DNA from: Candidatus Omnitrophota bacterium
GTDB taxonomy: Bacteria; Omnitrophota; Gorgyraeia; 2-02-FULL-51-18
Assembly: GCA_945877765.1 (NCBI GenBank)
Contig: CAMDWQ010000001.1
Location: 22,253 to 86,252, forward strand
Reading direction: 5' to 3'
Length of the DNA: 64,000 bases
In this document: piece after piece, positions 22,301 to 39,100 of the stretch
How the letters are laid out: each line of letters starts with the position of its first letter
How positions within the stretch are numbered: position 1 is the first letter of the stretch
Notes under the pieces: generated by a model
What the model saw: the letters and a program-made list of their open reading frames with translations, nothing else
Databases searched by the model: none
Told to the model about the DNA's origin: nothing
Made by a program: the position numbers and the translations under genes

Positions 22301-23071
22301 TTAAATACCACCTATCAGAGCTCCCACAAGCCCGATAGATAGAGCACCCGCCAATGCCGCAAAAATGGTGTTGCGCGGGTGATGCTTAAGCACCTCACTT
22401 AAAAGCGCATGCGTTACCAAAAATATAAAGCCCCCTCCCACATGCCCAAGCACATAACCAATCCAGCGAGAGGAAGACGGCAGTAAAAATAGGATCCCCA
22501 CAATACCGCCGGCAACTGTGGTTAATGTCTCCAGAAGAAAACTTAAGAAAAAAGCCCGCAGACGTCTCATCCCCGATCCGATGGCTACCAGCGTCAGCGC
22601 TAGACCCTCCGGAAGCTTATGAAAAGCTACCGCCAAAAGAACAAAAACGCCGACTTTTGATCCGCTGAGATAACCACTGTAAATGGCTAGCCCATCCATA
22701 AAACTGTGAACCGAGAGTGCCACCACCATCGAAAGGGTAATGGCTTTAAAATTTACCTCGGTATGGGTGGCTGAGCAAGCCGGGCAAACGTGAAAAACAA
22801 ATTTTGTGATCCCCCAAAATAAAAGATAGCCCGTCAAAAAACTAACAGCGGCACTCGCGGCACCCACAAGCTCCACGGTCTCCGGCCAGAGCTCTAGAAT
22901 TGCCACTGCCAGAAGCGCTCCAGCGGCAAATGAAATCAATAGGCATAATCGTTGATGGCTTATTTTTTTAAAACTAACGGCAATGATGGCACCGAGCGTC
23001 GCCATGAAGCAGGCAAGAACCAGTCTTAAGCCGATAAGCTGCCACACATCCATTCCAAATAAATTTCTCAT
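22301..23071 (-). CDS. ZIP family (ZupT-like) zinc/iron permease
   Basis: 256 aa, eight predicted TM helices. Conserved HSFMDGLAIYSG and HKLPEGLALT motifs typical of ZIP transporters. Confidence 0.75.
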   Translation of the reverse strand: MRNLFGMDVWQLIGLRLVLACFMATLGAIIAVSFKKISHQRLCLLISFAAGALLAVAILELWPETVELVGAASAAVSFLTGYLLFWGITKFVFHVCPACSATHTEVNFKAITLSMVVALSVHSFMDGLAIYSGYLSGSKVGVFVLLAVAFHKLPEGLALTLVAIGSGMRRLRAFFLSFLLETLTTVAGGIVGILFLLPSSSRWIGYVLGHVGGGFIFLVTHALLSEVLKHHPRNTIFAALAGALSIGLVGALIGGI

Positions 23072-23154
23072 TAAATTAATAGTTTCATCCGATAGGTTTT
23101 AAAAAGTGGGCAAAAAAATGACGTGCTAAACTTTCCTTAAGAAAGAAACAAGAC

Positions 23155-23340
23155 TTATTTTTTCTTATTCTTAATAGTGGCTTCAGCCCGAAGCCAGTCT
23201 TCTGCATCAAAACCATCTTGGCATCCACGATCGACAAAAAATTGATAAGCTAGCGCCGCAATCTGCGCTTGATCATTTTCCTGAGAAGCCAGGTTCACTT
23301 TAGATGCATTTTTTAATTGTGGGGAAGCAATTTTAGCCAT
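23155..23340 (-). CDS. DUF2934-like small protein
   Basis: 61 aa. IAALAYQFFVDRGCQDGFDAEDWLRAE matches the DUF2934 core pattern A-Y-x-x-W-x-x-x-G-x-x-x-G-x-x-x-x-D-W-x-x-A-E. Confidence 0.5.
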   Translation of the reverse strand: MAKIASPQLKNASKVNLASQENDQAQIAALAYQFFVDRGCQDGFDAEDWLRAEATIKNKKK

Positions 23341-23492
23341 TGTTTGATCTCCATTTGATAATTGATTCTACTCCAAAAGAGCGGGAGGTGACAATATTAT
23401 TTTGTTGGCAAAATAATAACGTATTGGAAAATTTTTATGTGGGGCCATATTCTTTGACTTGTTTATTTAATTTATATCTCGTCCTTTAGGTT

Positions 23493-24530
23493 CTAATTTC
23501 TTACTTTTTTTGACGGCAATTTCGACTCTAATTCACTTTCCATCTCTTCAACCGTAGGTAATTTTGACAATAACTTTCCCTTTATCTTCTGAGTCAAAAT
23601 ATAATTGCTTATGCCCATCGGCTTTTTAATATCTCTCAGGGAATACTCCGCTTCGATTTTATCTTTATACCTGCACAGTATCAGCCCTATTGACGGATTA
23701 TCATCTGGGCGTTTCAACAAAGAATCAACCGCAGATAAATAAAAATTGAGCTTTCCCGCGTACTCCGGCTTAAATCTTCCGGCCTTTAATTCAATAACCA
23801 CATAACAACGCAAATCCAAATGATAGAACAACAGGTCAATAAAATACTCGTTGCCAGATATCTCCAGCCTATACTGCCTGCCCACAAAAGCAAATCCCTT
23901 GCCAAGCTCAAGCAGGAAAGACGTTATTTGTTTAGTCAGATTCTGTTCGATCTCTCTTTCCTGGGCACTGTCTCCAAGTTCCAAAAAATCAAATAAATAT
24001 GGATCCTTAACAGCCTGTCGCGCAAGATCCGATTGAGGCGGCGGTAATGTCCGGGAGAAATTATTCAGCGCTTTGCCTCTTCTATCACAATACCCATTTT
24101 CTATCTGCATCTCAAGTATGTCCCTTGACCATCCATTCTGCAAAGCCGCGGAAGCATACGCAAGAGCGGTATCAACTTTACGCATTTTAGCCAAAATTAC
24201 ACGATTGTGCCCCCATGGTATTTGTGCCACAGGCTGTGGCACAATTTCAAACTTTGAAGAATAGAATAGATACCACTGCCTTATGGCGTAAAGGTTCCTA
24301 CGGGAAAAACCTTTCATCCCGGAAAAGTCTTTTTTAAGATCGGCTGCCAGCCGCTCAACAAGCCCATCGCCCCAGGAAGCCTCGGACTGTTTCTTGATTA
24401 TTTCTTTGCCTATATCCCAGTAAAGTTCCATAAGCGTCTGCGAAAGCCCCTGAGCAGCCCTTAAGCGAGCGGAAATAATCTTCTGCTTTAAATCAGCAAG
24501 CCATTTTATATAATCGCGTGATATCTTCAC
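23493..24530 (-). CDS. DUF1016 / YhcG-like PDDEXK-fold nuclease domain protein
   Basis: 345 aa. The C-terminal restriction-endonuclease-like core (FIDLLFYHLDLRCYVVIELKAGRFKPEYAGKLNFY: the D...E-x-K arrangement) and the N-terminal helical domain are typical of YhcG/DUF1016. The segment is visibly AT-rich (by eye) compared with its neighbours. Confidence 0.65.
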   Translation of the reverse strand: MKISRDYIKWLADLKQKIISARLRAAQGLSQTLMELYWDIGKEIIKKQSEASWGDGLVERLAADLKKDFSGMKGFSRRNLYAIRQWYLFYSSKFEIVPQPVAQIPWGHNRVILAKMRKVDTALAYASAALQNGWSRDILEMQIENGYCDRRGKALNNFSRTLPPPQSDLARQAVKDPYLFDFLELGDSAQEREIEQNLTKQITSFLLELGKGFAFVGRQYRLEISGNEYFIDLLFYHLDLRCYVVIELKAGRFKPEYAGKLNFYLSAVDSLLKRPDDNPSIGLILCRYKDKIEAEYSLRDIKKPMGISNYILTQKIKGKLLSKLPTVEEMESELESKLPSKKVRN

Positions 24531-24807
24531 AAATCACCCCTATAGAAATCCTATACATTAACCTCTATCACTCGCGTCGTATCATTCTCAAAAGTACCCA
24601 CCACCTTCACAGCGATCTTCCGTCGACCAAAAGCGATACCATTGGCGCATTAGCTCCAGATTACATAAGATGATTCTACAAAGAGGTGGAAGAAAAGCAA
24701 AGATAAACAATTGTCTCTTAAAAAATTGAAGCCGAAAAAGAGCCTAAAAAAAAGCCAGCCACAGGAGGGTGTGGAGTTTAAATTAAATCAAAAATTAACG
24801 GTGTGTC

Positions 24808-27800
24808 TTACGCCGCCTGCAATGCCATTTTGATCATCAAGCTATAGGTCTGTATCATTTCCTCGACCGCAAGCTTCATGACGGGTGGGAGGGCAAATTG
24901 CTGGAGGATTTTTAAGTCTTCCAGAAGACCCTTTAAGGCATTGATGAAATCAGGCAGGTCTTTGGGTTTAAATTCACGTCCTAATTGTTTTTGGTAGGCT
25001 TGGTAGAATTGGACAAAATAAGGATTGCTGATGCTTAGCTCTTCCAGACGGGCTTCGAAGCTAGCGAGAGTGAGAGTGGCGGGATTAAGTACGCCTCTTT
25101 CGCCAAGATCAAGAAGATAGAGAAAGCGTGTCTTGCTATTGGGCTGGTGTCTTCTGGTAGATGAGGTGACATAGACTCGCTCTGCTTTTTGATAGGTTAC
25201 TTGTAGTTCACTAAAATTTAGAACCATGAGATCTTTTTCTGTGGGGTAAAGCCTCTTTGCCTCTTTAAGCATCGCGCGGGCCTGATGACCCACGACGACA
25301 TACCTGACAAATTTGCCCCCGGGAGTGCGTCTTTCATTGTGAAGCTGGGCCACTAGAAGCTGGATGGCTAATTGAGTTACGTTTCCTTGGGGAAGCACGG
25401 CATTGGTGTTTAAAATGACCACTGCGGGCTCATTGATGAAGGATTCGGGCACATTCGCATAGAGCGTGCGGGCTTCGCGGGCGGCTTCTTCCATGATGAG
25501 CCTATAGTCGGCCAGCGACATGGTGGCGGTGGTTTGGTTGCCTTTGCGCCTTATTTTGATTTTTCTAGCGCCAATGGCTATGCCCCTGTCGGCCAAGCCA
25601 TAAAGAATTGCCTTTCCATCATCCCGGAAGACTATTTGAATGACGGAGGAGCCGATGGCGATTTGTTTATTTTCATGGACGTTTTGGGTGGTAATGACTT
25701 GGGCGATGAAGGTAATGACTTCGCCTTTTTGAATATTCACCACGGGATGGCCTTGGGTTAGCTCTAAGTTGAGTGGTCTGGGACGCCGAGCAGGGACTCT
25801 GGAAGTGGGAACGCGTTCTAGGGTTGTGGTGGCGAGGCGGGCGGCATTGGGCTTCGCCAGTCTCGCGCCATCCAACACTGTACCCCCCGTACTGTTTTTT
25901 TCTCTGATCACGTGGGCTGCGGGACTCCCAATAATATTCTTCCCCCGCTCAATGGATTCGCGAATGGTTGTAATCGGTCGGACCTGTAGAACAACAATTC
26001 GGTCATCTGCGTCCAAAGACCACTCCATGTCGATCTGAGTCCCAAAATATTCAGATAGCTTGTAAACCACTTCGGCAACCGCTTGAAGTTGTTGTTCATT
26101 GAGTGCTGGCTCAAGAGCTTGTGCGTTAGGTTCCACCTTATAGCCTCCCTGCGGCCCCAGATCTAGCAGAACCTGTTCGGTTTTAACACCTACATGAGAG
26201 TCAAGAAGTTCATATCTTCCCGAAGCGCTTGTTGTTTTTGAAAATAGATACGAATCCGGATCCTTGACAGTTTGATCCACCAGCCCTTTGGCTAACCCAT
26301 GGGCCGCATCCACTCGTATGTGATCGGCTCTCTGTTGGGCAGGATCAGCGCTGAAAGCAACGCCGGACGCTTTTGGGTTAATCATCTCATCCACCAAAAT
26401 ACTCTCAGCCCCGGATAACCAAACATCGACAACAGCTCTTGAAAGGGCCTGAATTCCGAATACGTTAAGTTTGGTCTCCTTCATTCCCGCCATCGCTTCA
26501 TCAACGCTATCTTCTTTCAATCCCGAAGAGCGCACAGCAACCGCCCCAAGCACTTTCATAGAATTCCCGATGGAACGAGAAACATCACTTGTTTCATACT
26601 TAAGTAGCAACAACTCCACTGAATCTCGCAGACTTAAAATTAAGCCATCGATAGAATGAAGCTCCTGGCTTCTTTGAAGATTTTGCTTAAACTTTAAAAT
26701 TTTAGTCTTAACTTCTGTTTTAAATTTAACTGACGTTCTTTCGTCAATGGCTATCAACCTCTCAAGATTGTTTAATTGCTTCACTGTCAAATCGCGGTAG
26801 GCAAAAGCTAGGTTGGCTTGAAGCTTAAGATCAATGCCTTTGCTTTCTTCGATTTTTTCTTGCAAGGCAGCGGAGATCTTCCAAGATTTTTCAGCTAGAT
26901 TTCCGGTATCGATTAAAGCATTTAATGATTGGTTTGCCTTTGACGTTAGTTCAAAAATATCGGCCGGGCCTTTCGCGTCTCTCACCTTGTCTACAAAACC
27001 ACTAATGGCCTGGTGGATATCAATCCTAAGATCCGCGGAAGTCTCTTCATCTGTTTTAATTAATTCCAGAATACCTGAAAAAATCGTATTCAACTGCCGC
27101 TGCCAATCATTGGCATATTCATCAATCCCTGTCATGCCCTCAAGAGAATTTAGTTCTTCAGGGTGCTCGCGAACCCTCCAAAGAAAATACTCAGTTGGCT
27201 GAATGACGAATCCTTCGGGAGTCGCGACTTGCACCGAGGAATCTATCAAGCCCCTTTCTTGAAGTTGTTTTACCGCGTAGGTTGTCTCGGCAGAATTACT
27301 ACCTTTCCCCCCTGCGATGGGCCTTGAAAAACGGTCTTTTAAATTTTCTTTCCAGACAACACCGCGGCCTTGAAGTTCTTTGATTTCGTCTTCGCGCGCT
27401 TTTTTGAGAGCGTCAATTTTAAGTTTTATTACCAAGATTTTTTCTTTGATGGTGGAGTCGCCTTCCTCACCGGTCATACCGGCAAGCTCTAACTTATTCC
27501 AAAAACTTAGAAGCACCGGCAGTTCAGATCCGCTTAACTCGACGACTGCACTTTCAACCTCAGCCGATATCTCTTTTCTGGCCGCACCAAGCCATTCCCG
27601 GCCCTTTTCGATCATCTCTGCCCTGGAGGATTGCAGCATCATCGCGGTAAATGGGTGCTTCCAATCTCCGTTTGCCGCCAGCATCGTCCGGTCAAGACGC
27701 TCTGCTTGCTTCATTAGTTTATCGGCTTCCAAAAATACTTGCTCAAAATCGTATCGTCTGGCATATTTTTTTTGTTCTATATATTGATGAAATTTTTTCA

Positions 27801-30800
27801 AATCTGCCTGAAATTGGTCGATCAATTCTCCCGCCTGACTTCTCACAAATTCCAAAATTGTGCTTCTTATGACTGGGTTTTCTGAAAGTTGGGTCAATAA
27901 GGACTCGATGCTATCGGACGGAAGTACCGCGCCTCCCAAAATTTGATCCAACAGCGCTCTCACCAGGTTCTGATTTGAGATCCTAGAAATAATATTCCCC
28001 AGAATATTCACGTCTTTGGGTAGAATCTCATAGGATGCTTTCGTTTCCATTCTTTCCTTCCACATCAAGTACTCCGTATACTTTATGACCGTTTCACCAC
28101 TCAAGTCATCGGCTCCCGCAATAAAATAAAGGGTGCCTTGATTAGCGTCTAAATAGACCAAATCTCCATCATGAACCTCACAGGTAGTTTGTTTTGCGTC
28201 AGCTATCGCATGAAATACTATTTCTTTTCCACCAACCTCTATCTTCATCTCTGTTGTATCGGCGGTATAAGTCTTAAAGCGCAGGACTTGGTTATGCACT
28301 GAAGCTCCATTAAAAATAACAGCGGGCTTTCGATTTTCACGCGCCCGTATAGCCGCATGAGATAATGAGCCGCCTGTAGTAATCGCAACTCCGTTTGCGG
28401 CGGCAATGCTCGGATCATCCTCATTGTCGGTATAGTCGGCAATCAAAATTCCGTTTTTAAACTCGTCCGCACTTCTTCCTGTTTGCTTAAATCGGGCAAA
28501 ACCGATCGCCTTGCCAAGATTCAAACGCACTCCACCCAAAGAAACTGCGCTGATACCACGCCTTTGATTTGGTCTTTCCAATAATTGCTTTTTTTTAAAT
28601 GGTCCCGTCATACGATTTAATAGATGCTCATTAGAAATAGCAGAAAAAATACCCCGTGCCCCGTCAGGACTATTGGCTGCTCCAGCCAAACGAGCCCCGC
28701 TCATCTGGACGGCAAGCGACTCAAACCATTCCCGAAATGCGCTAGTGGAGGCAAAGCCTTGCGGCAACAAGAGCTCTTCTAAGTCATAGGGACTAAGCTT
28801 GTTATTAACTAATTCTCTTTTCCGGAATAAATCATATCTCCGTTGATTCATAAAAAATTCTCCCAAAATTGCCGTACCCAGAACAAACTGGGAAGATTTC
28901 GTGTCTTTCAAGACATAAAACGTGATCTGATCTCCTAAAGCAGCAAGCTTCAATTCTTCGACAAGATAAGGACCGACTTCTCCGATGGTCGTGCGAGAAC
29001 AAAAAGATTGGAGTGATCGAGCAATCGCCGCCACCTGACGCATGTAAATAATCTGAAGTTGGTCGGCTTTGTAGGCGGCCTCGATTAGCCGAGCGACTGG
29101 GAAGTTACGAGCCGAAGCTTCTTGGTAAGCAGCATCAAATTTATAATTCCCATCATCAATCACAACTAACGCTCCTCTAGAAATGAGAGTCTGGATGCCG
29201 TGACTGATAAAATCCATCATCCTTTGACCGCTTGGCATACCATCAGGCACTTCTATCCCAAGAGCCACGGCCAGTGCTTCTACTTGTTTGACAGCGGCCG
29301 GCAGTGGCGTCGGCACCATCACCGAATCTTTATCGCTTCGCAAGAGATAACCATTGGCGACGAATTCAGAAGTTAGGTCCGAAGCATTTACATGGGGGGA
29401 GCGATTAATAGCGAGGTCAAGATCGAGAGTTGAAGTAACCACTTGTACTGCAAAATTCAGCTTCTCGGGAAGATCCGCTATAGAGGATGCGCCATGATCT
29501 TTATCAAAAACTGCTTCCATATGATATCCATCCCTGCTGACCATAAAACCAGCCGCTTCAAACGCATCACAAATACTTCTAAAACGCGTGCTGTTACCAG
29601 GCTCATAGATTTTCTCGATATTATCCATATAGCTCACCAAAATTCGGCCCTCCTCCTGGACAGGCAGAAGCGAAAAATGGATGGCCGCGCTATGAAGACC
29701 CAGCTTAAGACCGATCAACGCTGTATTTTCATCCGCCATGACAAGAGCGTTGGAGGGATCGAAAAAACGTGAATTCTTATGCCTTAATTGATTCAGCGAA
29801 AAAGCCTGGGTAACAGCAAGAACCGCTATTGAGTGCTCTTGCTGTGGTTTTTGTCGAGCGTCGAGATATTTGACATTGACCTGGGTCCTCGAGTCAGCAG
29901 AGCTGACCATACACGTAGACACTCTCTGGCTCCCACCGGAGGGCATAACACCTCCCAGATTTCTCACACCTTTTTGATGGACAATGTTGATTAGTTCGGC
30001 GAAGGAAACGGCTTCATCACTAATCGGCGTTCCACTACCGATAAAAGCTATGTAGTCACCCAAATTGATACTCCTAACTCGGGTCTCGTAACCCTCGGCA
30101 GGGGCAACCGTCAGCCGAGAGGATTTTTTAGAATCAAACAACTGCATCATTGCTTCAATGGATGGTTGGATAGCGTGTGCTTTTCCAGGAAGCGACCGAA
30201 GACTGTCCATAGCACCCTCTACTTCATGCCGGATATTTAAAAATAACTTTGCGATGGACCTCCCCCCTTGAAGATCTGACGATTCCTTGGCAATAGAATC
30301 CAAACTTTTCCCAGGAGGCTGCCCCTTGAAAAGCACCTCGTAAGACAGCACCATCAACTGCATGGTATCTAACAAAGCTAAAATATCCTCCGGAGACTTG
30401 TTGGGCTTGCCAAGTTTTTGCAGGACCTCAGAATTTAGTTTTTCAAAATCGCGGTACATGGCCATGACTCGTTGCGCCTCAGGGTTAGCCGTCGGGGTAT
30501 CTACCATTGGCACAAAAGCGTATTCGACGGGTATAACACGTCCCGTATGGTAGTCAATTTCCCGATGTAAAAAAGAACTCAATTGTTTGAAATCTGGTTT
30601 TCCATAAACCTGTGGAACGGGAACATTTCTATTTAACTTGCCGTAAATTTCTGAAAGAGCCAAGAGGGCTTGTTCGCTTCCGTTGTTAACTTTTGTCTTT
30701 AGAATTAGATAGATTTCAGCTTGTTGAGGAGAATTTAAAAAGACGTAGGCGGCGCCTAGGGCTAGGAGGACGACTCCATTCCCGCTGTTAACTTGTGCCT

Positions 30801-33800
30801 TTAGAATTGGATAGATTGCAGATTGTTGGGAGAGAGTTAAAGAGGCGTAGATAGGGCCTAGGGCCCGGAGGGCATATTGATTTCCGTTTTCAGCTTGTGT
30901 CTTTAGAATCGGGTAGACTTCAGATTGTTGGGAAGAAGTTAGAGAAGCGTAGGCGGAGCCTAGGGCTTGGAGGGCAATTTCCTGCCCAGTTTTAGCCTCT
31001 GTCCTGAAGAGCGTATAGATTTCGGATTGTTGGGAAGAAGTTAGAGAAGCGTAGGCGGAGCCTAGGGCTAGGAGGGCGCGCCCACTTCCACTTTCAGCTT
31101 TTGTCTTTAGAATTATAAAGATTTCAGATTGTTGGGAAAGGGTTAAAGAGGCGTAGGCGAGTCCTAGGGCCCGGAGGACTACTTCGCTTCCTTTATCAAC
31201 TATTGTCTTTAGAGTTGCATAGATGTCGACTTGTTGGGCAGAGGTTAAAGAGGCGTAGGCGAGTCCTAGGTCCCAGAGGGCGAATTCATTTTCTTCGTCT
31301 GCTCCTGTCTTTAAAGTTGCGTAGATGTCAAGTTGTTGGGCAGAGGTTAAAGAGGTGTAGGCAGAGCCCAGAGCTAGGAGCGACGAACTGTATTTAAGAT
31401 CAACGGCATTTGTTTTCAAAAAGTCATAAAGCTTTTGAAAATCCGCCATCACTTCATCAGGATTTGAGATCTGTGGGGTTGCTTTGGTTTCCACAGGTGT
31501 GACCGGGGTCATGGTATTTAACTTGCCGTAAATCTTTGAAAGGGCCCAGAGGGCATCTCCATCACCTTTGTCAGCTTTTGTTCTTAGAATTGTGTAAATA
31601 TCAGATTGTTGGGAAGAAGTTAAAGAGGTATAGGCGAATCCTAGGGCTACGTCGGCGCCAGAATTTCCTTTTTCAGCTCCTGTCTTTAAAATTGGGTAGA
31701 TTTCAGATTGTTGCGAAGTAGTTAAAGAGGCGTAAGCGGCTCCTAGGGCTCGAAGGGCAGTTCCATAACCTTTACCAGCTTCTGTCTTTAGAATTGCATA
31801 GATTTCAGATTTTTGAGAAGGGGTTAAAGAGGCGTGGGCGAAGCCTAGGGCTTCGTGGGAAAATACACTTTTATTGTCAGCTTCTGTTTTTAGAATTGGA
31901 TAGATTTCGGATTGTTGGGAAAATGCTAAAGAGGCGTAGGCAAGGCCTAGGGCCCAGAAGGCATCTCCACTTCCACTGCCAGCTTCTGTCTTTAGAATTG
32001 GATAGATTTCGGATTGTTGGGAAGGAGTTAAAGAAGCGTAGGCGGAGCCTAGGGCTAGGAGGGCGTCTCCATTTCCTTTATCAACTTCTGCCTTTAGAAT
32101 TGGATAGATTTCGGATTGTTGGAAAAGAGTTAATGAAGCGTAGGCGGGGCCCATGGCTAGGACGGCATCTTTATTTTCTTTGTCAGCTTTTGTCTTTAGA
32201 ATCAGGTAGACTTCGGATTTTTGGGAAGGGGTTAATGAGGCGTAGGCGCAGGCTATTCCAGTGCCAGGGTTTGCCTTTAAAATTGGATAGATTTCGGATT
32301 GTTGGAAAAGAGTTAAAGAAGCGTAGGCGGAGCCTAGGGCATACAGGCCATTTGAATTTCCATTTTTAGCTTGCGTCTTTAGAATCAGATAGACTTCAGA
32401 TTTTTGGGAAGGAGTTAAAGAAGTGTAGGCGGAGCCTAGGGCTAGGAGGGCGTGTCCATTTCCGTCTTCAACAGCAGCTTTTTTCAAAGAGTCATAATGC
32501 TTTTGAAAATCCTCCCTCACTTCATCAGGGTTTGAGATCTGTGGGGTTGCTTTGGTTTCCACAGGTGCAGCCGAGGTTATGGTATCTAGCTGGCCGCCAA
32601 TCCCTGAAAGAGCCAAGAGAGTTTGTTCATATCCACTGTCAGCTAGTTGCTTTAGAATCGGAAAGGCTTCGGATTGTTGGGAAGGGGTTAAAGAGGTGTA
32701 GACAGATCTTAGGGCTTCGAGAGCATTTAAATTTCCTTTTTCAGCTTGTGTCTTTAGAATTAGGTAGACTTCAGATTGTTGAGAAAGAGTTAAAGATGCG
32801 TAGGCGGAGCCTAGGGCTTGGAGATTGGAAGCACTGGGCGGTTTCATGATGACAGACGGCCGAATCATCTTATAAAGCCCCCAAATAGTTGCACAAGTGG
32901 CAAACAAAACAGCGATAGAAAAGAACATGTAGTTGGCAACTGTCATTAAAACATTTTCTTCTTTTGGCTTTTCCAGTTTGGCTTCTTTGTCGGATGTAAT
33001 ATTTTCATTGGGCTGAGAATTCGATTCTTTATCAGACTGAATATTTTTTCCGGTTTGAGGATAGCTGACTATCTGATCCACCGCTTCTCCTTGCGCTTTG
33101 GTATCGCCAAAATACTTTTTAATGCTGGGGGAAGGCTTGGTTTTTTCATCGGCTGACGGTTGAGATGAATCCTGCTGCGCTAAAGATTGGGACGCAAGCG
33201 GCACAGAGAAGCCCAGCAAAACAGCACCCGATAAAATCAGGTGCCTAAACATTTCTCCGGCTGAATTTTTAGGGTGGTTTGTCTTCGCAACACGTGCGTC
33301 GCCATTCGACGATCCCCCATTATCTGCCAGCCGGGCAGCATTCATCGAATAGACTGCTCCCGCCAAAATATCTTTTTTGATATTTTGAGCTTTTGCCGTA
33401 GCAGCCATCCTACCCTGTCCCATAACATAGGCAGTCATATCCATTTTAGCGGCCACAGTGCTTACCACTGGCTGTTTTACATTCACGGATATCTGACCCA
33501 AAAGTATTTCCTCATACCTCTTAATATTCGTCTCATGCGTCACCTCGGGAATAATAGAGATGTAGGAAATGTTCCTTTGTTTTAAAAGATACTTAAGATT
33601 GGGTGTGTGATAGCCGCCGGTGATGAGGATAGCGCCTGCCTGCCGGCTAGGCAGGGATTTTGAATCTTGGATGGCGGATATATTTTTCAGAAAAACTTTA
33701 TCTCTCTCATAAGTTAGCTCATAGAATTTTTTACAGAGATTCGCCATATCTGTGAAATCTTCCTTAAGAAAAATCGCTTTTTCATAATGACCTTTTAAAA

Positions 33801-35076
33801 CCATGAGCTTTTGATTTAGAAAACCTGAGAGAGTTTTAATATCCGCAAAATCCTCTTTTTTGAATTCTTCATATTCTTCGGGAGTCAGGGACAGGTGAAA
33901 TAGTTTTTTATAAAACTCTAAAACTTTGATAGAAAGAAGAAGCTTGGACTCATCCTCATTGGTAGTGAAATTCTTAAAAATCTGGTCTTCCAGAGCTTTC
34001 TTTTCCGATAGGAGGTCTTTGGGGCTCAGAGAATTTGATTTTTCAAGGTATGCGAAATATTTAAATAACTCAGGGTATTTTGTTGTGCCTTTTAATTTTT
34101 CTTTCAAATATAGAAAAAATCCTTTTTGTGAATCTTTCATGGACAGCTTTGAGGCGGATTGGCCGCTTAACTCCCTTTGATCCTCCGCACCTAAAGATTC
34201 AATCGCTTTTTGTTGCTCTAGGCTTGCATCTTTAAAGTCAATTTTGGATTCAAAATTTTTAAGTTCTTTTAATTTCAGAAGATTCGGGAAATGGTTCAAA
34301 TCAATATTTAAAACATTAGCTTGGAGAAAAAGTGCATCGACATAGTCGGAGAAACTGGTTTCATCCTTTTTTGCTTTGTTATACTTCTCAAGGAATGACA
34401 AAAGAAATGGGTTTAGAAGCTTTGGTTTTAGGACTTCAATCGTAGATTCGATTTCCTGCAGATAGCTTTCGAAACGGTCCCTTTTTTTGATGCTTTGTTT
34501 ATAAACTTGTAGAGACTTAAAATAAAGATTCGGATCTTCAACTCCCACAACTTTAAAATTGTGATCGCTGGTCAGATCGAGATATTCAATTCCATGAAGA
34601 AGCCCTTTCTGTAAATATTCTTTGGCAATATTCTGTCTTTTGGACAAAGAAGCTCTGTCTCTTAAAAAAGTAAGATTGGCATTGCCATTGGCAGCCTCGG
34701 TGAAGACGGTATCTGCTATTCCGTTTTGGAATAATAGATCGAAGAGTTTGGCTTCGTTTAACTGGCATGAGGAATTGGTGTGAGCGTCTTGGATGAGGAT
34801 GATGGTTTCGGAGGGGCTAGACCCCTGTGGTATCTGGTAGGCGTCTTCGATGGTCGCTACTGATTCAGGGATTGGAGGAAGTAGCTTTTTAGCCCATTCC
34901 AGATTCTTTTGTTTTTCCCCCCTATCCTCCGTCCTCCATCCTAAATCCATCTTTCGAAGCTCAGGTGCCGAATAAGAAAACTCTTGAATTATTAGGCATA
35001 AAATTAGCGTGAGCGAGAGGCTCTTAAGAAAGACCGTTCGTGTCGTCTTTTTGACGATGCGGGGGCTATTTATCAT
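24808..35076 (-). CDS. Giant (3422 aa) membrane-anchored multidomain protein: TIKI/TraB-like N-domain, ~20 HEAT/PBS-lyase-like 35-aa repeats, PEP-utilizing-enzyme phosphohistidine swivel domain, and PEP-synthase/rifampin-phosphotransferase-like ATP-grasp domain
   Basis: A single uninterrupted 10,269-nt ORF. The N-terminus has a signal peptide/TM (VFLKSLSLTLILCLIIQEF), and a second TM lies at ~aa 712-738 (MFFSIAVLFATCATIWGLY). About aa 748-1480 are tandem ~35-aa repeats (ALGSAYASLTPSQQSEIYPILKTEAxKGNxxAL). At ~aa 2225-2320 TTGGSLSHAAIRARENRKPAVIF...HDGDLVYLDANQGTLYF is a strong match to the PEP-utilizers mobile domain with the catalytic His. At ~aa 2575-3036 AGGKGSNSAE, AVRSSGLKEDSVDEAMAGMKETKLNV, IDMEWSLD and VLQVRPIT give a PPDK_N/PpsA ATP-grasp nucleotide-binding domain. 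No PEP/pyruvate TIM-barrel domain is present. Domain assignments are from motif recognition only. Confidence 0.8.
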   Translation of the reverse strand: MINSPRIVKKTTRTVFLKSLSLTLILCLIIQEFSYSAPELRKMDLGWRTEDRGEKQKNLEWAKKLLPPIPESVATIEDAYQIPQGSSPSETIILIQDAHTNSSCQLNEAKLFDLLFQNGIADTVFTEAANGNANLTFLRDRASLSKRQNIAKEYLQKGLLHGIEYLDLTSDHNFKVVGVEDPNLYFKSLQVYKQSIKKRDRFESYLQEIESTIEVLKPKLLNPFLLSFLEKYNKAKKDETSFSDYVDALFLQANVLNIDLNHFPNLLKLKELKNFESKIDFKDASLEQQKAIESLGAEDQRELSGQSASKLSMKDSQKGFFLYLKEKLKGTTKYPELFKYFAYLEKSNSLSPKDLLSEKKALEDQIFKNFTTNEDESKLLLSIKVLEFYKKLFHLSLTPEEYEEFKKEDFADIKTLSGFLNQKLMVLKGHYEKAIFLKEDFTDMANLCKKFYELTYERDKVFLKNISAIQDSKSLPSRQAGAILITGGYHTPNLKYLLKQRNISYISIIPEVTHETNIKRYEEILLGQISVNVKQPVVSTVAAKMDMTAYVMGQGRMAATAKAQNIKKDILAGAVYSMNAARLADNGGSSNGDARVAKTNHPKNSAGEMFRHLILSGAVLLGFSVPLASQSLAQQDSSQPSADEKTKPSPSIKKYFGDTKAQGEAVDQIVSYPQTGKNIQSDKESNSQPNENITSDKEAKLEKPKEENVLMTVANYMFFSIAVLFATCATIWGLYKMIRPSVIMKPPSASNLQALGSAYASLTLSQQSEVYLILKTQAEKGNLNALEALRSVYTSLTPSQQSEAFPILKQLADSGYEQTLLALSGIGGQLDTITSAAPVETKATPQISNPDEVREDFQKHYDSLKKAAVEDGNGHALLALGSAYTSLTPSQKSEVYLILKTQAKNGNSNGLYALGSAYASLTLFQQSEIYPILKANPGTGIACAYASLTPSQKSEVYLILKTKADKENKDAVLAMGPAYASLTLFQQSEIYPILKAEVDKGNGDALLALGSAYASLTPSQQSEIYPILKTEAGSGSGDAFWALGLAYASLAFSQQSEIYPILKTEADNKSVFSHEALGFAHASLTPSQKSEIYAILKTEAGKGYGTALRALGAAYASLTTSQQSEIYPILKTGAEKGNSGADVALGFAYTSLTSSQQSDIYTILRTKADKGDGDALWALSKIYGKLNTMTPVTPVETKATPQISNPDEVMADFQKLYDFLKTNAVDLKYSSSLLALGSAYTSLTSAQQLDIYATLKTGADEENEFALWDLGLAYASLTSAQQVDIYATLKTIVDKGSEVVLRALGLAYASLTLSQQSEIFIILKTKAESGSGRALLALGSAYASLTSSQQSEIYTLFRTEAKTGQEIALQALGSAYASLTSSQQSEVYPILKTQAENGNQYALRALGPIYASLTLSQQSAIYPILKAQVNSGNGVVLLALGAAYVFLNSPQQAEIYLILKTKVNNGSEQALLALSEIYGKLNRNVPVPQVYGKPDFKQLSSFLHREIDYHTGRVIPVEYAFVPMVDTPTANPEAQRVMAMYRDFEKLNSEVLQKLGKPNKSPEDILALLDTMQLMVLSYEVLFKGQPPGKSLDSIAKESSDLQGGRSIAKLFLNIRHEVEGAMDSLRSLPGKAHAIQPSIEAMMQLFDSKKSSRLTVAPAEGYETRVRSINLGDYIAFIGSGTPISDEAVSFAELINIVHQKGVRNLGGVMPSGGSQRVSTCMVSSADSRTQVNVKYLDARQKPQQEHSIAVLAVTQAFSLNQLRHKNSRFFDPSNALVMADENTALIGLKLGLHSAAIHFSLLPVQEEGRILVSYMDNIEKIYEPGNSTRFRSICDAFEAAGFMVSRDGYHMEAVFDKDHGASSIADLPEKLNFAVQVVTSTLDLDLAINRSPHVNASDLTSEFVANGYLLRSDKDSVMVPTPLPAAVKQVEALAVALGIEVPDGMPSGQRMMDFISHGIQTLISRGALVVIDDGNYKFDAAYQEASARNFPVARLIEAAYKADQLQIIYMRQVAAIARSLQSFCSRTTIGEVGPYLVEELKLAALGDQITFYVLKDTKSSQFVLGTAILGEFFMNQRRYDLFRKRELVNNKLSPYDLEELLLPQGFASTSAFREWFESLAVQMSGARLAGAANSPDGARGIFSAISNEHLLNRMTGPFKKKQLLERPNQRRGISAVSLGGVRLNLGKAIGFARFKQTGRSADEFKNGILIADYTDNEDDPSIAAANGVAITTGGSLSHAAIRARENRKPAVIFNGASVHNQVLRFKTYTADTTEMKIEVGGKEIVFHAIADAKQTTCEVHDGDLVYLDANQGTLYFIAGADDLSGETVIKYTEYLMWKERMETKASYEILPKDVNILGNIISRISNQNLVRALLDQILGGAVLPSDSIESLLTQLSENPVIRSTILEFVRSQAGELIDQFQADLKKFHQYIEQKKYARRYDFEQVFLEADKLMKQAERLDRTMLAANGDWKHPFTAMMLQSSRAEMIEKGREWLGAARKEISAEVESAVVELSGSELPVLLSFWNKLELAGMTGEEGDSTIKEKILVIKLKIDALKKAREDEIKELQGRGVVWKENLKDRFSRPIAGGKGSNSAETTYAVKQLQERGLIDSSVQVATPEGFVIQPTEYFLWRVREHPEELNSLEGMTGIDEYANDWQRQLNTIFSGILELIKTDEETSADLRIDIHQAISGFVDKVRDAKGPADIFELTSKANQSLNALIDTGNLAEKSWKISAALQEKIEESKGIDLKLQANLAFAYRDLTVKQLNNLERLIAIDERTSVKFKTEVKTKILKFKQNLQRSQELHSIDGLILSLRDSVELLLLKYETSDVSRSIGNSMKVLGAVAVRSSGLKEDSVDEAMAGMKETKLNVFGIQALSRAVVDVWLSGAESILVDEMINPKASGVAFSADPAQQRADHIRVDAAHGLAKGLVDQTVKDPDSYLFSKTTSASGRYELLDSHVGVKTEQVLLDLGPQGGYKVEPNAQALEPALNEQQLQAVAEVVYKLSEYFGTQIDMEWSLDADDRIVVLQVRPITTIRESIERGKNIIGSPAAHVIREKNSTGGTVLDGARLAKPNAARLATTTLERVPTSRVPARRPRPLNLELTQGHPVVNIQKGEVITFIAQVITTQNVHENKQIAIGSSVIQIVFRDDGKAILYGLADRGIAIGARKIKIRRKGNQTTATMSLADYRLIMEEAAREARTLYANVPESFINEPAVVILNTNAVLPQGNVTQLAIQLLVAQLHNERRTPGGKFVRYVVVGHQARAMLKEAKRLYPTEKDLMVLNFSELQVTYQKAERVYVTSSTRRHQPNSKTRFLYLLDLGERGVLNPATLTLASFEARLEELSISNPYFVQFYQAYQKQLGREFKPKDLPDFINALKGLLEDLKILQQFALPPVMKLAVEEMIQTYSLMIKMALQAA
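30636..32835 (-). repeat. Intragenic tandem repeat array (~105-bp unit, ~20 copies) encoding the HEAT-like repeats of the giant protein; it contains a higher-order duplication
   Basis: The plus strand shows recurring blocks such as ctttagaattggatagatttcggattgttgggaaRgagttaaagaRgcgtaggcggagcctagggct with 105-nt periodicity. The larger protein segment PVETKATPQISNPDEV occurs twice (aa ~838 and ~1193), indicating block duplication. The many spurious plus-strand ORFs at 31203-32849 are antisense artefacts of this periodicity. Confidence 0.8.
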
Positions 35077-35154
35077 AGGTCTATGTATTACATATAGATA
35101 CGTGGAGTATGCCCAATAACTACCGATATTGCAAATTTTTTACAAGCTTGGGTT

Positions 35155-35961
35155 TTGGGGGCAATAAAACTCAATCAGAATTGCCAAACAAGCTCATCCA
35201 TGTTAGCATCATCGACTATGATCACAAATTTCTCCACACAAGAAGAAATTATCAAAAAACTACGCTCCATTGCAAAAATTCACAGCTTTGACGTAGTGCA
35301 TCGTATTTCGTCTGTTTTCTACGATGTTCTCAAGATTTCCTTTTACGCTTTGCAAAGAAAAATCGAAGGTCTCAGGGAACGCCCCACTGGTCCGGTGGTC
35401 TTGTCTACAAACGAGATTACTAAGCTTTTTAAGCTAATCCACTATCACCATTCTCAAAACCATATCCATCTTGTGAGCAATGAGTTAACTGAGTGCTTCG
35501 GTCGTAACTTCATCGAGGCCGATGCATTGAGTTACTTTGAGAAAAAAGTTGAGGGCAATATCTCCGACAAATTTGGGAGACAAATATTCGTTAGTTTGGA
35601 CGATGGGATAAAATTTATGTACAAAAACCAAGATACCGGCAAACATGAAATTGACTCAAAATACTACCTGCCTTATAGGGGTAAGCGCTTACCATGGATT
35701 CAGCATACTTTGAAAAATTCTAAAAATATTTATACAAGGACTGATGGTTCTGATCAAGAACTCATGTATGTGAATCAATATGATTTACCTGATTATGATG
35801 GGCAGGGTAGCAAATGTTTCTGGATTGTAATTTTGAGGCGGTACAAAAAAGACCGTGTCGGCCCTTTTAAATTTAAAACTGCCTTTGCAATTTTTAAATA
35901 TAATAATTTTCTAAAAAGAATCGAAAGATACCGACCCATCACGGAAACCAAGCAAAACTAA
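35155..35961 (+). CDS. Hypothetical protein (AT-rich orphan; start uncertain, possibly at MLASSTMITNF or MITNF)
   Basis: 268-aa ORF on the otherwise almost empty plus strand, divergent from the giant gene. The region is ~35-40% GC by eye against ~50% for the surroundings. No recognisable motif (HYHHSQNHIH, KCFWIVILRRYKK). It may be a foreign or toxin-like gene. Confidence 0.4.
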   Translation: MGAIKLNQNCQTSSSMLASSTMITNFSTQEEIIKKLRSIAKIHSFDVVHRISSVFYDVLKISFYALQRKIEGLRERPTGPVVLSTNEITKLFKLIHYHHSQNHIHLVSNELTECFGRNFIEADALSYFEKKVEGNISDKFGRQIFVSLDDGIKFMYKNQDTGKHEIDSKYYLPYRGKRLPWIQHTLKNSKNIYTRTDGSDQELMYVNQYDLPDYDGQGSKCFWIVILRRYKKDRVGPFKFKTAFAIFKYNNFLKRIERYRPITETKQN

Positions 35962-36146
35962 AGCCCGCTTTTGGATGTCTATAAATCTCCAAAAGCGGGC
36001 AAAAATTTGTTGCTGGTGCAAGAAAACGAACACTCGTGATCACCAATCCCACCAGCCAGACTCGGCGAATAGACTGTTCGTTATTAGGATGACCAAATAG
36101 TACTTGAAAAGTCTATCCCTGTCAATTTCTTCTTAATACAATGCTC

Positions 36147-39100
36147 TTAATACAAACGAAAATCAGCGGCCTGCTGAAAGCATGCCAAAAGGCGTTCACG
36201 GACCTTTTCCAGGCTCTCCGGCGAATAAACAAATTCGTGAGTTTGATTGAGTGTTGAAAAATAAAGCATCCCGCGGACGGGCGCCTCTCCGTAAAGCTCG
36301 CGAAATACAAAAGCGTACAAACCCAGCTGAAATTCATACTCCTGCGCTGTTTTTTTGGACTCAAGGGAGGTGATCTGGTTGGTTTTATAATCCAAGATCA
36401 CCCACTGCCCTGCCTCACGGTAGACTAAATCAATCTGGCCCTTCAGAATGCCGTGCGGTGTCTTAAAAATAAACGGAAGCTCCGGATGGCAGGCGGGTGA
36501 TTTTTTCACCGATGTTCCGAGAGGGCTTTTCCAGAAAGCCGCACTGCTCTCGCGGATCTCGTCTTTTTCAGCAGAGGTGAGTGGCGAAAGAATTTTCATC
36601 AAGAAATCCTCGCGAATGAAACCTCGCGGTGAGCCCAGCGTCATCATTTCCATCACGCGGTGATAGATCGTTCCATACTCATTTCGCGGCGACCTCTCGA
36701 GATCCTCGGGGTCGATGGTTTCTGGTTCTTCTAAATAAACCGGCGGTTTTGGCGACGCTTGCGCCAAAAGATCGCTCACGCTTAAATCGGTTGCCGCATC
36801 GTACGGCTTTTGAGGTAGGTGCAGGCGCTCAAGGATTTTTGCAACGTCCGGCATCACCGGCTCGACGGTTGTCACGGAAGGCTCACGTGACTCTCCGGAA
36901 ATGGACGAAGAGGAAAGCGCTTTCTCGCGGCCCAAAAGATTTAGCACGCGCTCCATCCAAGTGGCATTTTTATTCCCAGAGACGGTTTCACGAGGCGCTG
37001 CGCCACACAAGAGAAGATGTTCACGCGCGCGTGTGACCGCCACGTACAAAATGCGATCCTCTTCTTCCTCTTCTTTTTCATCCATGCGGTTGGCAGCGAC
37101 TTCATAGGCCTCATCGTTTAGTTTTTTACGTTCATCCAGAGGATCCTGCCAGGACCAGCCCAAACCTCCCTCGGTAGACGCGATCGCCAAGCCGCGGTCC
37201 TTAGGCTTTTTCTGACCTCCCAAGTTCGCGATCGCCACAACCGGAAACTCAAGGCCCTTCGCCGCGTGAATGCTTGACAGAAATACCGCGTCGCTTCCAT
37301 CGGTTGCGATTCGCGCTTCCTCCGTCTCATCTCTCTCGGCCATGCCTTTGGCGTAACGCACAAATTCGGCCGCATCCAAGGACATTTTTTCTTCCAGAGA
37401 ACGCGCGATCTCCACGAGTTTTCGCCCATTGGCGACGCGCTGAATCCCATCGGGACCAGCCAGAGCAAAACATTCGTAGTCGCTCCAGCGCAGTATTTTT
37501 TCCAAAATCGACGAAACGGTAAAACTGTTTTTGACGCTTCGTAAAGATTCTAAAAACTCTACAAATACCTGGACGCGGAGGCGGTCTTTTTCCGACAAGC
37601 CTTCCACCGTGGATAAATTATCGAGCGCACGTGAAAGCGACCGTCGCCGGGAATCATCTTTTTTGGCCGCGCGGGCCAGCCAAAAAAGACCGTCATCAGA
37701 AACGCTGGCCAGCGGCGAGCGAAGAGCCGCCGCCAAAGCAACGTCATCGTCCGGATGATCCAGAAGAGCCAGCAAAGACACCAGGTCCTTGATTTCTGTT
37801 TTTTCAAAAAAAGATTTCGATTTCGGAGAATAAAACGGGACGCCCAGGCGCGAGAGCGCACGCTCGTAAGTCTGCGCTTTTTTGGCGCTGCGCATCAGGA
37901 TCGCCACATCGCCCCATTTCATCGGCCGACCAGACAGAGTCCCGTCCTCAACACAAACACCTGAACGAACCAACGATAAAATGCGCTCGGCCAAAAGCCG
38001 GGCCTCATCCTCACGGCCCTCGTCAAGATCTTTCAATTTTTCGTCCGGGCCATAAAACGCGCAGAGAGGCTCGATAGTCCCCTTAACCTCAAGCAAGAAT
38101 TTTTTTCCGGGAACCAACGCCTTAAAAACACCATGGGCGTCTACCGCAAAAAAATGGTTCACAAAATCCAGCACCTCGAATCGAGAGCGGTAGTTCTCAT
38201 CCAGAGTTATTTTTTTTCCGGCCAAAGCCTCATAGTGCCCGAAAAGAGCAGGCTCGGCATGCCGAAACGCGTAGATCGATTGTTGCGGATCTCCCACGAG
38301 AAATAGGTTGTTCTTGCTCCTCAAAAGATCGATAAGCTTTGCCTGTAACGGGCTCGTATCCTGGAACTCATCCACCAATAGATGACAAAAACGATTCCGA
38401 TAACGCTCGCGGACCGCTTTTTTCGCGGGAGTCTCGCCTTTCAAAAGCTTCCACGCTAAGAGCGTCAGATCCTCGAAATCCAGCGCGGCCATTAATCTTT
38501 TTTCATTTTCATAGTTTTCCATAAATACGTGCATGATTTTCAAGAACTCTTCTTTAAAAGGAAAAAATAATTCCCCAAGCGCCGCCAGCTTCCAGGCACC
38601 GGCGTCTTTCCGGAAGGATTCGACCCACTCCTTGAAAGTCTCTGAGCCTCTTTTTTGAATGGAACGCTCGATCACCCGAAACGCCTCGAAATTCCGCCAG
38701 TCTAGAAATGCGGCGGAAAAAATTTTAGGGATATGTCTAGCGCCTTCAATAGCAGCAGCTTCATTGGCGGTTATTTTTTTATTCTTTCCGGCTATTTCTA
38801 TCACCTCAAGAAAAGCTTGGGAGATCTTCGCCTCTAGAGGTTTGCGGTCAAGACCGCTGCGGATCGTCAAAATATTTTCGTCTTCCCCGGTCGCGCGAAA
38901 ATGAGCATACAAACGCAGCGCCGCCAGGCGCACAGAGACTTCACCGCGCTCCGTCAGCATTTCCAGCGCCACAGCGCTATCGGCATGCGCCTCAAATGCG
39001 GCATCCAACGCTTTGGTCATCAAAATATCTGATTCAGCCTTGGATAAAACTTTGAAATATGGATCCACAGCAGCTTCGATTGGATTTTCACGCAAAAGCC

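Follow-up and report, generated by a model that had tools for sequence, protein, structure and literature searches.

An older, diverged tandem amplification of a putatively Sel1/TPR-like 34-residue repeat in a large Omnitrophota protein

The gene and its repeat arrays

A 64,000-nucleotide stretch of DNA from a Candidatus Omnitrophota bacterium (assembly GCA_945877765.1, contig CAMDWQ010000001.1, positions 22,253 to 86,252 of the forward strand), referred to here as the window, contains one giant gene: a single minus-strand open reading frame (ORF; 24808..35076) of 3,422 aa (10.3 kb), read from the ORF list and its translation and open across all 3,422 codons. An exact copy of the protein, P0001, is encoded on each of two contigs. 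Within this frame lie three arrays of a tandemly repeated 34-residue unit, which together cover about 21% of the coding sequence and are the subject of this report. The units descend from a common DNA ancestor, and the array they form is an older, diverged tandem amplification, not a fresh near-identical one.

Tandem Repeats Finder (TRF) places the arrays at 30686-32824; it reports a period of 102 bp, along with 204 and 306, at 71-77% matches and with few indels. An ungapped repeat search recovers 16 in-register copies spaced 102 bp, interrupted by breaks of 273, 375 and 81 bp, and a table of in-register units places 18 clear ones at 30664-32820, over about 2.2 kb. A first-pass annotation of this DNA had located a tandem array of about that length at 30636-32835, which these positions bear out; its period of 105 bp is corrected to the measured 102 bp (34 aa). 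The consensus of the unit is xALGxAYASLTxSQQSEIYxILKTxAxxGxxxAL. Units are distributed over three consecutive arrays, A, B and C, with two, nine and seven units respectively, and each array closes with a degenerate capping unit (…ALS.IYGKLN). Array A (32572..32820, minus strand, like the other array features) is recognized from the unit table, from hidden Markov model matches and from the helices of a structural model. Array B (31507..32445) has one unit shortened to 27 aa and ends in the capping unit ALWALSKIYGKLN; array C (30622..31377), delimited by the unit table, ends in the capping unit ALLALSEIYGKLN, and a third linker (PDFKQLSSFL), which is degenerate, comes after it. Two short proline/threonine-rich linkers containing PVETKATPQISNPDEV join A to B and B to C: linker copy 1 (…PVETKATPQISNPDEV…DFQK.YD.LK; 32481..32567), which is disordered in the model, and linker copy 2 (31413..31499).

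Two features of the region are later and local. In array B, an out-of-register tandem duplication of 183 bp comprising two units (32089..32431; TRF period 183, 83% matches) leaves 32089-32248 and 32272-32431 identical at 134 of 160 positions (84%), and it explains both the 27-residue unit and the 81-bp spacing. The two linker copies are identical at 82 of 87 nt (94%) between flanks of 50-80% identity; they include a 37-nt exact match at a spacing of 1068 and differ by one synonymous and four non-synonymous changes, so that the segment is either a recent conversion tract or a nucleotide-constrained sequence. The linkers account for what had been annotated as a higher-order duplication about 355 aa apart: PVETKATPQISNPDEV does recur at aa 838 and 1194, that is 356 aa (1068 bp) apart, but what is repeated is the 87-nt linker and not a block of about 1 kb. 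A higher-order repeat was rejected on wider grounds as well, since the TRF periods of 204 and 306 fit no better than 102 and arrays B and C show no colinearity (no diagonal offset stands out between them), the 183-bp local duplication being the sole exception.

The relationship among units is visible in the DNA itself. Pairwise nucleotide identity between the 18 units ranges from 63 to 88% with a mean of 72.5%, against 26.4% (maximum 39%) between unrelated 102-nt segments cut in frame from that gene, while mean amino-acid identity is 57%. Residues that two units share are encoded by the same codon in 77% of comparisons, where codon usage elsewhere in the gene predicts 33%; synonymous codons in conserved columns are uniform (for example CAA in 18/18 units and GCC in 15/16). 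The units are thus in register and similar in their DNA beyond what protein constraint accounts for, and the codon identity indicates that they share DNA ancestry, not protein-level likeness alone, as the first-pass annotation had also held.

That annotation had gone further and described the units as near-identical products of a recent expansion, and here the measurements disagree with it. Recent copies would be expected to be at least about 95% identical and to share long exact tracts. Identity instead falls within the 63-88% range, and no exact tract shared within the region is longer than 45 bp, the next in length being 37 (in the linker), 36, 34 and 33 bp. All three codon positions are about equally diverged (identity 0.725, 0.742 and 0.708), and Nei-Gojobori estimates across units give a proportion of synonymous differences (pS) of 0.32, a synonymous divergence (dS) of about 0.42, a non-synonymous divergence (dN) of about 0.30 and a dN/dS of about 0.70. 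Identity is also flat with respect to the distance between units (0.74 at lag 1 and 0.72-0.75 at lags 2-6) and is nearly the same within arrays (0.730) as between them (0.722). Such near-equidistance fits one early burst followed by independent divergence.

Long antisense ORFs, reported by the first-pass annotation as a by-product of the periodicity, are indeed present: they measure 191, 105, 64 and 61 aa across the array region, and one plus-strand frame has 10 stops in 719 codons. The longest (191 aa; 31794..32369, plus strand) lies in that frame. Both it and the 105-aa ORF (32532..32849, plus strand) are judged spurious because the sense frame is backed by homologs and by a confident fold. 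Plus-strand GC skew is positive (+0.12 to +0.14) only at 30001-34000 and negative in nearly all of the remaining window, a switch that probably reflects C-rich repeat codons such as GCC, TCC, TCT, CTA and CAA.

Fold and relatives of the repeat unit

AlphaFold, run without an alignment on the whole 761-residue region, returns three helical arrays with disordered linkers between them, at a predicted local distance difference test score (pLDDT) of 71. Array B, modelled with an alignment of five rows drawn from the arrays of the host protein and of its relative P0121 (described below), is helix-turn-helix throughout, with a pLDDT of 91.9 and a predicted template-modelling score of 0.84. Each modelled unit comprises a helix A of 13 residues (columns 31-9), a turn at L10-T11, a helix B of 16 residues (columns 12-27) and a three-residue G-N-x loop; the T-P-S-Q at the start of helix B would act as a helix-capping box, and the units are predicted to stack into alpha-solenoid rods. 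The hydrophobic core and the helix caps are conserved, and exposed positions vary freely between units. Against the PDB, Foldseek finds alpha-solenoids at E values of 1e-5 to 1e-3 and template-modelling scores (TM-scores) of about 0.2-0.55: the PP2A A subunit and other HEAT proteins at the top (importins and CAND1 are among the best), and also ARM, PUF, PC-repeat and designed TPR proteins.

Family models place the unit outside the curated repeats. On the arrays, every Pfam and NCBIfam model stays below its cutoff; arrays B and C give no match to the HEAT clan at E values up to 10, nor does the whole protein at values up to 0.1, and no Pfam TPR or Sel1 model matches even at E values up to 10. 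Three paralogs (P0035, P0092 and P0028) do match Pfam HEAT. Pfam LTXXQ (CpxP/Spy) scored 23.3 bits on array B against a cutoff of 24.3, a match that was dismissed as coincidence because it came through a short SLTxxQ motif only. Profile matches to PDB sequences are to a SEL-1 repeat protein (8sxq, 2.2e-7), the consensus TPR CTPR-rv4 (7obi, 3.2e-7), a Sel1 protein (6ork, 1.6e-4), the TPR domain of GPSM2 (2.6e-3) and SEL1L (0.06), with no HEAT protein among them. The alignment to 7obi stays in register over four gap-free 34-residue units.

Compared with known families, the unit has the 34-residue period of TPR and its two antiparallel helices (102-bp spacing; modelled helices of 13 and 16 residues). 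Set against the TPR consensus (W4, L7, G8, Y11, A20, F24, A27, P32), the A..LG..Y of its helix A corresponds to positions L7-G8-Y11, whereas the signature residues of helix B are absent and A20, F24, A27 and P32 are not recognizable. The A-x-x-G-x-x-x-A-L-x-x-L-G-x-x-Y junction resembles the consensus of Sel1-like repeats (SLRs), although SLR units are typically 36-44 residues long, against 34 here; both TPR and SLR lack the conserved polar motif T-P-S-Q-Q-S-E of the unit's helix B. With HEAT, HEAT_2 and PBS-lyase HEAT-like repeats the unit has in common a predicted helical-hairpin solenoid, an 'A..ALG' motif in helix A and a position in the protein, since HEAT_2 arrays occupy the equivalent place in paralogs with the same N-terminal domain. 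It differs from them in length (34 residues against about 35-38 in the HEAT_2 units of those paralogs), TM-scores are low, and membership of HEAT_2 was rejected when hhalign against the paralogs' units gave a probability of 1.6% with six columns ('A..ALG') aligned. The description 'HEAT-like' in the first-pass annotation therefore survives only as a loose reference to a generic alpha-solenoid fold; the repeat is better regarded, from these profile comparisons, as a putative new Sel1/TPR-like 34-residue repeat outside all curated families.

The unit appears to be very rare. When 1.84 billion representative proteins were searched exhaustively with a profile of the 18 aligned units, only four were found to carry it: the host itself, P0121 (618 bits, 32 stretches), P0122 (three stretches) and a 42-aa fragment; the remaining matches are unrelated low-complexity proteins. 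A scan of genome contigs with array C as query found no relative, nor did a scan of metagenome contigs with a two-sequence alignment of the middle domain. P0121 (3,984 aa; GCA_041294365.1, locus L002), an ortholog-like protein, has the same layout as the host protein (N-terminal domain, arrays of the 34-aa unit, middle domain, PEP-utilizers, PPDK_N) and is 30-45% identical to it outside the repeats. It carries about 37 units in five arrays, and its DNA shows 102-bp tandems at 69-70% matches; at 10495-11460 of L002, inside the same gene, there is a two-unit higher-order repeat of 204 bp with 84% matches.

All 18 units of the window have their nearest neighbour within the host protein, at an amino-acid identity of 57% within it against 44% to P0121. 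Because units cluster by protein, the arrays must have grown, or been homogenized, after the two lineages split, so that the expansion described in the first-pass annotation stands as a lineage-specific tandem amplification and falls in being called recent and near-identical. A truly recent amplification is found elsewhere in the family: at 2460-2776 of L004 (a contig of JGI 3300005235) lie 3.1 copies of the 102-bp unit with 95% matches, showing that fresh growth occurs in this repeat family, though not in this window. P0122, the L004 protein, has 1,290 aa, is otherwise unrelated to the host protein and has no Pfam domains. The family therefore amplifies lineage by lineage, with 18 units here, about 37 in P0121 and three at 95% in L004.

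The host protein and its domains

Several other domains surround the arrays, all on the minus strand. An N-terminal domain (aa 1 to about 550; 33427..35076), conserved across a large family, is preceded by a hydrophobic anchor at aa 15-33, and a transmembrane (TM) helix is predicted at aa 709-735 (32872..32952; Kyte-Doolittle score 1.86 in a 19-residue window), directly upstream of the arrays. These are the two strong hydrophobic segments in the hydropathy profile. Basic residues precede the first, and a K/R-rich stretch follows the second; under the positive-inside rule these flanks would place the N-terminal domain outside the cytoplasm and everything past residue 735 inside it. The arrays, the middle domain and the enzyme domains are accordingly predicted to be cytoplasmic, by a crude hydropathy method, and such a placement would suit an ATP-using module.

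This module consists of the two domains that Pfam recognizes in the protein: a PEP-utilizers mobile His domain (aa 2208-2312; 28141..28455) with the motif GGSLSHAAIRARE (E = 2.2e-10), and a PPDK_N-type ATP-grasp domain (aa about 2750-3060; 25903..26835; E = 5.5e-34) that is 45% identical to its counterpart in P0121. Both domains of PEP synthase, PPDK and rifampicin phosphotransferase (Rph) are thus present, but in those enzymes the ATP-grasp domain comes first and the His domain second, an order that is reversed here. The PEP synthase, PigC and Rph families of NCBIfam match the module far below their cutoffs (112 against 598, for example). The last 300 or so residues (aa about 3100-3422; window 24808-25780, minus strand) form a C-terminal domain that has no family annotation and is common to just 12 of the homologs described next. 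Beside the giant gene, the sole sizeable plus-strand ORF (35155-35961) encodes 268 aa (247 aa in the call made on the ENA contig segment L001) and has no Pfam match.

The N-terminal domain is far more widespread than the repeat. It is common to 119 other proteins of 2-6 kaa, at 30-62% identity, and has no Pfam, NCBIfam or PDB-sequence match. Among the 28 homologs with a named source, about 20 are from Omnitrophota/Omnitrophica, one is from Auribacterota and one from Elusimicrobia, the rest carrying only a JGI function label. Twelve of the 119 also share the final 300 or so residues. The middles of these proteins carry highly varied enzymes, often together with Pfam HEAT_2 arrays; the enzymes include phosphoglucomutase, PGI, PFK, aldolase, PEPCK, hexokinase, adenylate kinase, methyltransferases and kinases. 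Several homologs lie on one contig, which indicates a multi-copy family within a genome.

A further protein differs at the position of the arrays. On contig JBGAJA010000002.1 of a Candidatus Omnitrophota metagenome-assembled genome (L003, 4118-14464, plus strand), a 3,448-aa protein shares with the host only the middle domain and the module of His domain and ATP-grasp, at 30-36% identity; WD40-like beta-propeller repeats stand where the 34-aa arrays would be, and its N-terminus is different. With beta-propellers in the array position, the scaffolds seem interchangeable: between the N-terminal domain and the enzymes there appear to be 34-aa arrays, HEAT_2 arrays or beta-propellers.

Origin, age and role of the arrays

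Taking these results together, we put a probability of roughly 0.7 on the reading that the protein contains three arrays of a Sel1/TPR-like 34-residue repeat that arose by an early amplification and then diverged, that the assembly of the arrays is stable and correct, and that they serve as a scaffold. One ancestral 102-bp unit was amplified in tandem after the split from the nearest known relative, presumably through unequal recombination or replication slippage. The units then diverged substantially (dS about 0.4, dN/dS about 0.7), with a few later local events, namely the 183-bp out-of-register duplication of two units and the copying or conversion of the linker of about 90 bp. Identical tracts of at most 45 bp suggest that exchange among units is rare at present. 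Standing between the TM helix on one side and the conserved middle domain and His-domain/ATP-grasp phosphotransfer module on the other, the arrays would act as a membrane-proximal spacer and a putative protein-binding scaffold, which is the most likely role on the protein's predicted layout.

A number of points weigh against this reading. The structure is a prediction from a five-row alignment made from the repeats themselves, and the Sel1/TPR assignment is not unanimous, as Foldseek ranks HEAT (the PP2A A subunit) above TPR. The cytoplasmic topology comes from a crude reading of hydropathy and the positive-inside rule, and runs against one preprint, which reports the HEAT repeats of Archaeovorins as predicted extracellular (bioRxiv 10.1101/2023.11.21.568195). 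The scaffold function is inferred. The weak excess of long identical tracts considered below and the 94% linker leave room for continuing gene conversion. Finally, two concordant assemblies of the arrays may derive from the same reads, in which case the copy number would lack independent proof.

Gene conversion is central to the first alternative, in which the units are old and ongoing concerted evolution, through short conversion tracts, holds them at an intermediate equilibrium identity and explains their likeness within the protein. Clustering of units by protein would be expected under it, the 87-nt linker at 94% inside flanks of 50-80% resembles a conversion tract, and the synonymous codons are strikingly uniform. 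Set against a simulation that preserves column-specific and pair-specific identity, long identical runs are in modest excess (10 runs reach 25 nt or more where 5.4 would be expected; P about 0.03, with a range of 0.03-0.05), but the longest run is not significant (P = 0.18). Identity is independent of distance, whereas conversion usually favours neighbours; homeologous exchange should be strongly suppressed at 27% divergence, which is the level found here; and a single burst with subsequent divergence would produce such a flat identity matrix just as readily. Gene conversion may have occurred to some extent, but the data are explained without it, and we consider concerted evolution a doubtful account of the arrays.

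A second alternative concerns function. The unit may be an undescribed and very rare Sel1/TPR-like family that amplifies independently in different lineages, and it may give a phosphotransfer enzyme anchored in the membrane a binding surface that evolves fast, perhaps adjusted to partner or host molecules that themselves change. This alternative leans on the ten most variable columns of the unit, whose dN/dS of 1.39 is at or above neutral and compares with 0.41 in the 24 conserved columns; the variable columns were picked post hoc, because they vary, so the value cannot serve to test for positive selection. The literature proposes a host-dependent lifestyle for the phylum. We regard this alternative as speculative and unlikely to hold. 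A diversity-generating retroelement was also considered as the source of the variable positions and appears unlikely: no reverse transcriptase is present among the 11 window proteins run through Pfam, and all units vary, not one target copy.

Very recent, near-identical expansion, with copy-number polymorphism, a liability to collapse or expansion in assembly and an unreliable displayed length, was how the first-pass annotation had read the array. The DNA-level similarity on which it drew is real, and near-identical arrays of this family do occur in other proteins (95% in L004, and the 84% unit of 204 bp in L002). About ten pairs of units share exact tracts of at least 25 nt, and about 25 nt is roughly what RecA-dependent exchange in E. 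coli requires at minimum. The mean identity of 72.5%, the maximum of 88%, a dS of about 0.42 and the 45-bp limit on exact tracts all argue in the opposite direction, and the assemblies are also unfavourable to it. ENA contig k141_169049 (96 kb, analysis ERZ27280294), whose name supplies the MEGAHIT value k=141, is identical to the window over the 14,143 bp fetched (L001, window 22808-36950), which include the whole array, and the same protein occurs on a second, longer NCBI contig of 167 kb. P0001 is recorded from NCBI and ENA and not from the Logan assemblies, in which its neighbours AddA and YhcG are recorded; the giant gene may be fragmented there, at low k. We consider such an expansion very unlikely.

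Since no exact repeat exceeds 45 bp and all units differ from one another, normal read lengths or k = 141 make collapse unlikely, and the displayed array length and copy number are probably correct. The risk of collapse had therefore been overstated, and the array needs no flag as a serious assembly hazard in a genome scan. That it is wholly an artefact, a chimeric or inflated repeat in a giant ORF not real as displayed, is extremely unlikely: the DNA was assembled from a metagenome, where repeats often go wrong, but the 3,422 codons are uninterrupted, no two units are the same, the identical protein occurs on two contigs of different length, and P0121 has the same architecture with more units in another genome. 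Scarcely conceivable is an ancient protein repeat whose DNA signal has gone and whose likeness is kept by protein-level selection alone, as conserved core and variable exposed residues might suggest, and as would suit a preprint's report that most Omnitrophota nucleotide tandems are 'dissolved' (bioRxiv 10.64898/2026.06.07.730766), since nucleotide identity exceeds amino-acid identity, third positions are 0.71 identical, TRF detects the array directly and the codon identity of 0.77 against 0.33 refutes it.

An early amplification with later divergence also agrees with what is reported of long proteins in the phylum. Omnitrophota preprints (West-Roberts et al. 2023; Nielsen and Lui 2026) describe polypeptides, anchored in the membrane, in which enzymes are combined with HEAT, TPR or WD scaffolds. 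Helical-repeat scaffolds beside enzymes are said there to be common in the long proteins, and HEAT repeats (HEAT_2) and PPDK_N to be among the frequent domains of the giant ones (bioRxiv 10.1101/2023.11.21.568195); nucleotide tandems are mostly 'fuzzy' and not exact (bioRxiv 10.64898/2026.06.07.730766). The host protein shares the membrane anchor, the helical-repeat scaffold with enzymes and the fuzzy tandem. It is smaller, at 3,422 aa and 10.3 kb, than the proteins of the catalogues, for which the entry threshold is at least 10,000 aa or an ORF longer than 20 kb. Neither its N-terminal 550-aa domain nor the 34-aa unit is described in the available text of the long-protein preprints. An example of lineage-specific amplification of a unit is given by the blades of beta-propellers (Pereira and Lupas 2022, as cited in bioRxiv 10.1101/2023.11.21.568195). 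There too units are closer within a protein than between orthologs and copy number varies (here 18 against about 37), whereas the units of the window are helical and already well diverged.

The arrays are, in sum, ordinary biology in a new repeat subfamily, within a kind of protein familiar for the phylum. The family of the N-terminal 550-residue domain, with more than 100 large Omnitrophota proteins, is a more interesting lead than the arrays themselves. A protein of 3.4 kaa nevertheless shows the design of repeat scaffold plus enzymes that has been reported for far larger Omnitrophota proteins, and to that design it adds an unannotated, predicted helical-repeat subfamily in which the steps of tandem growth can be clearly traced.

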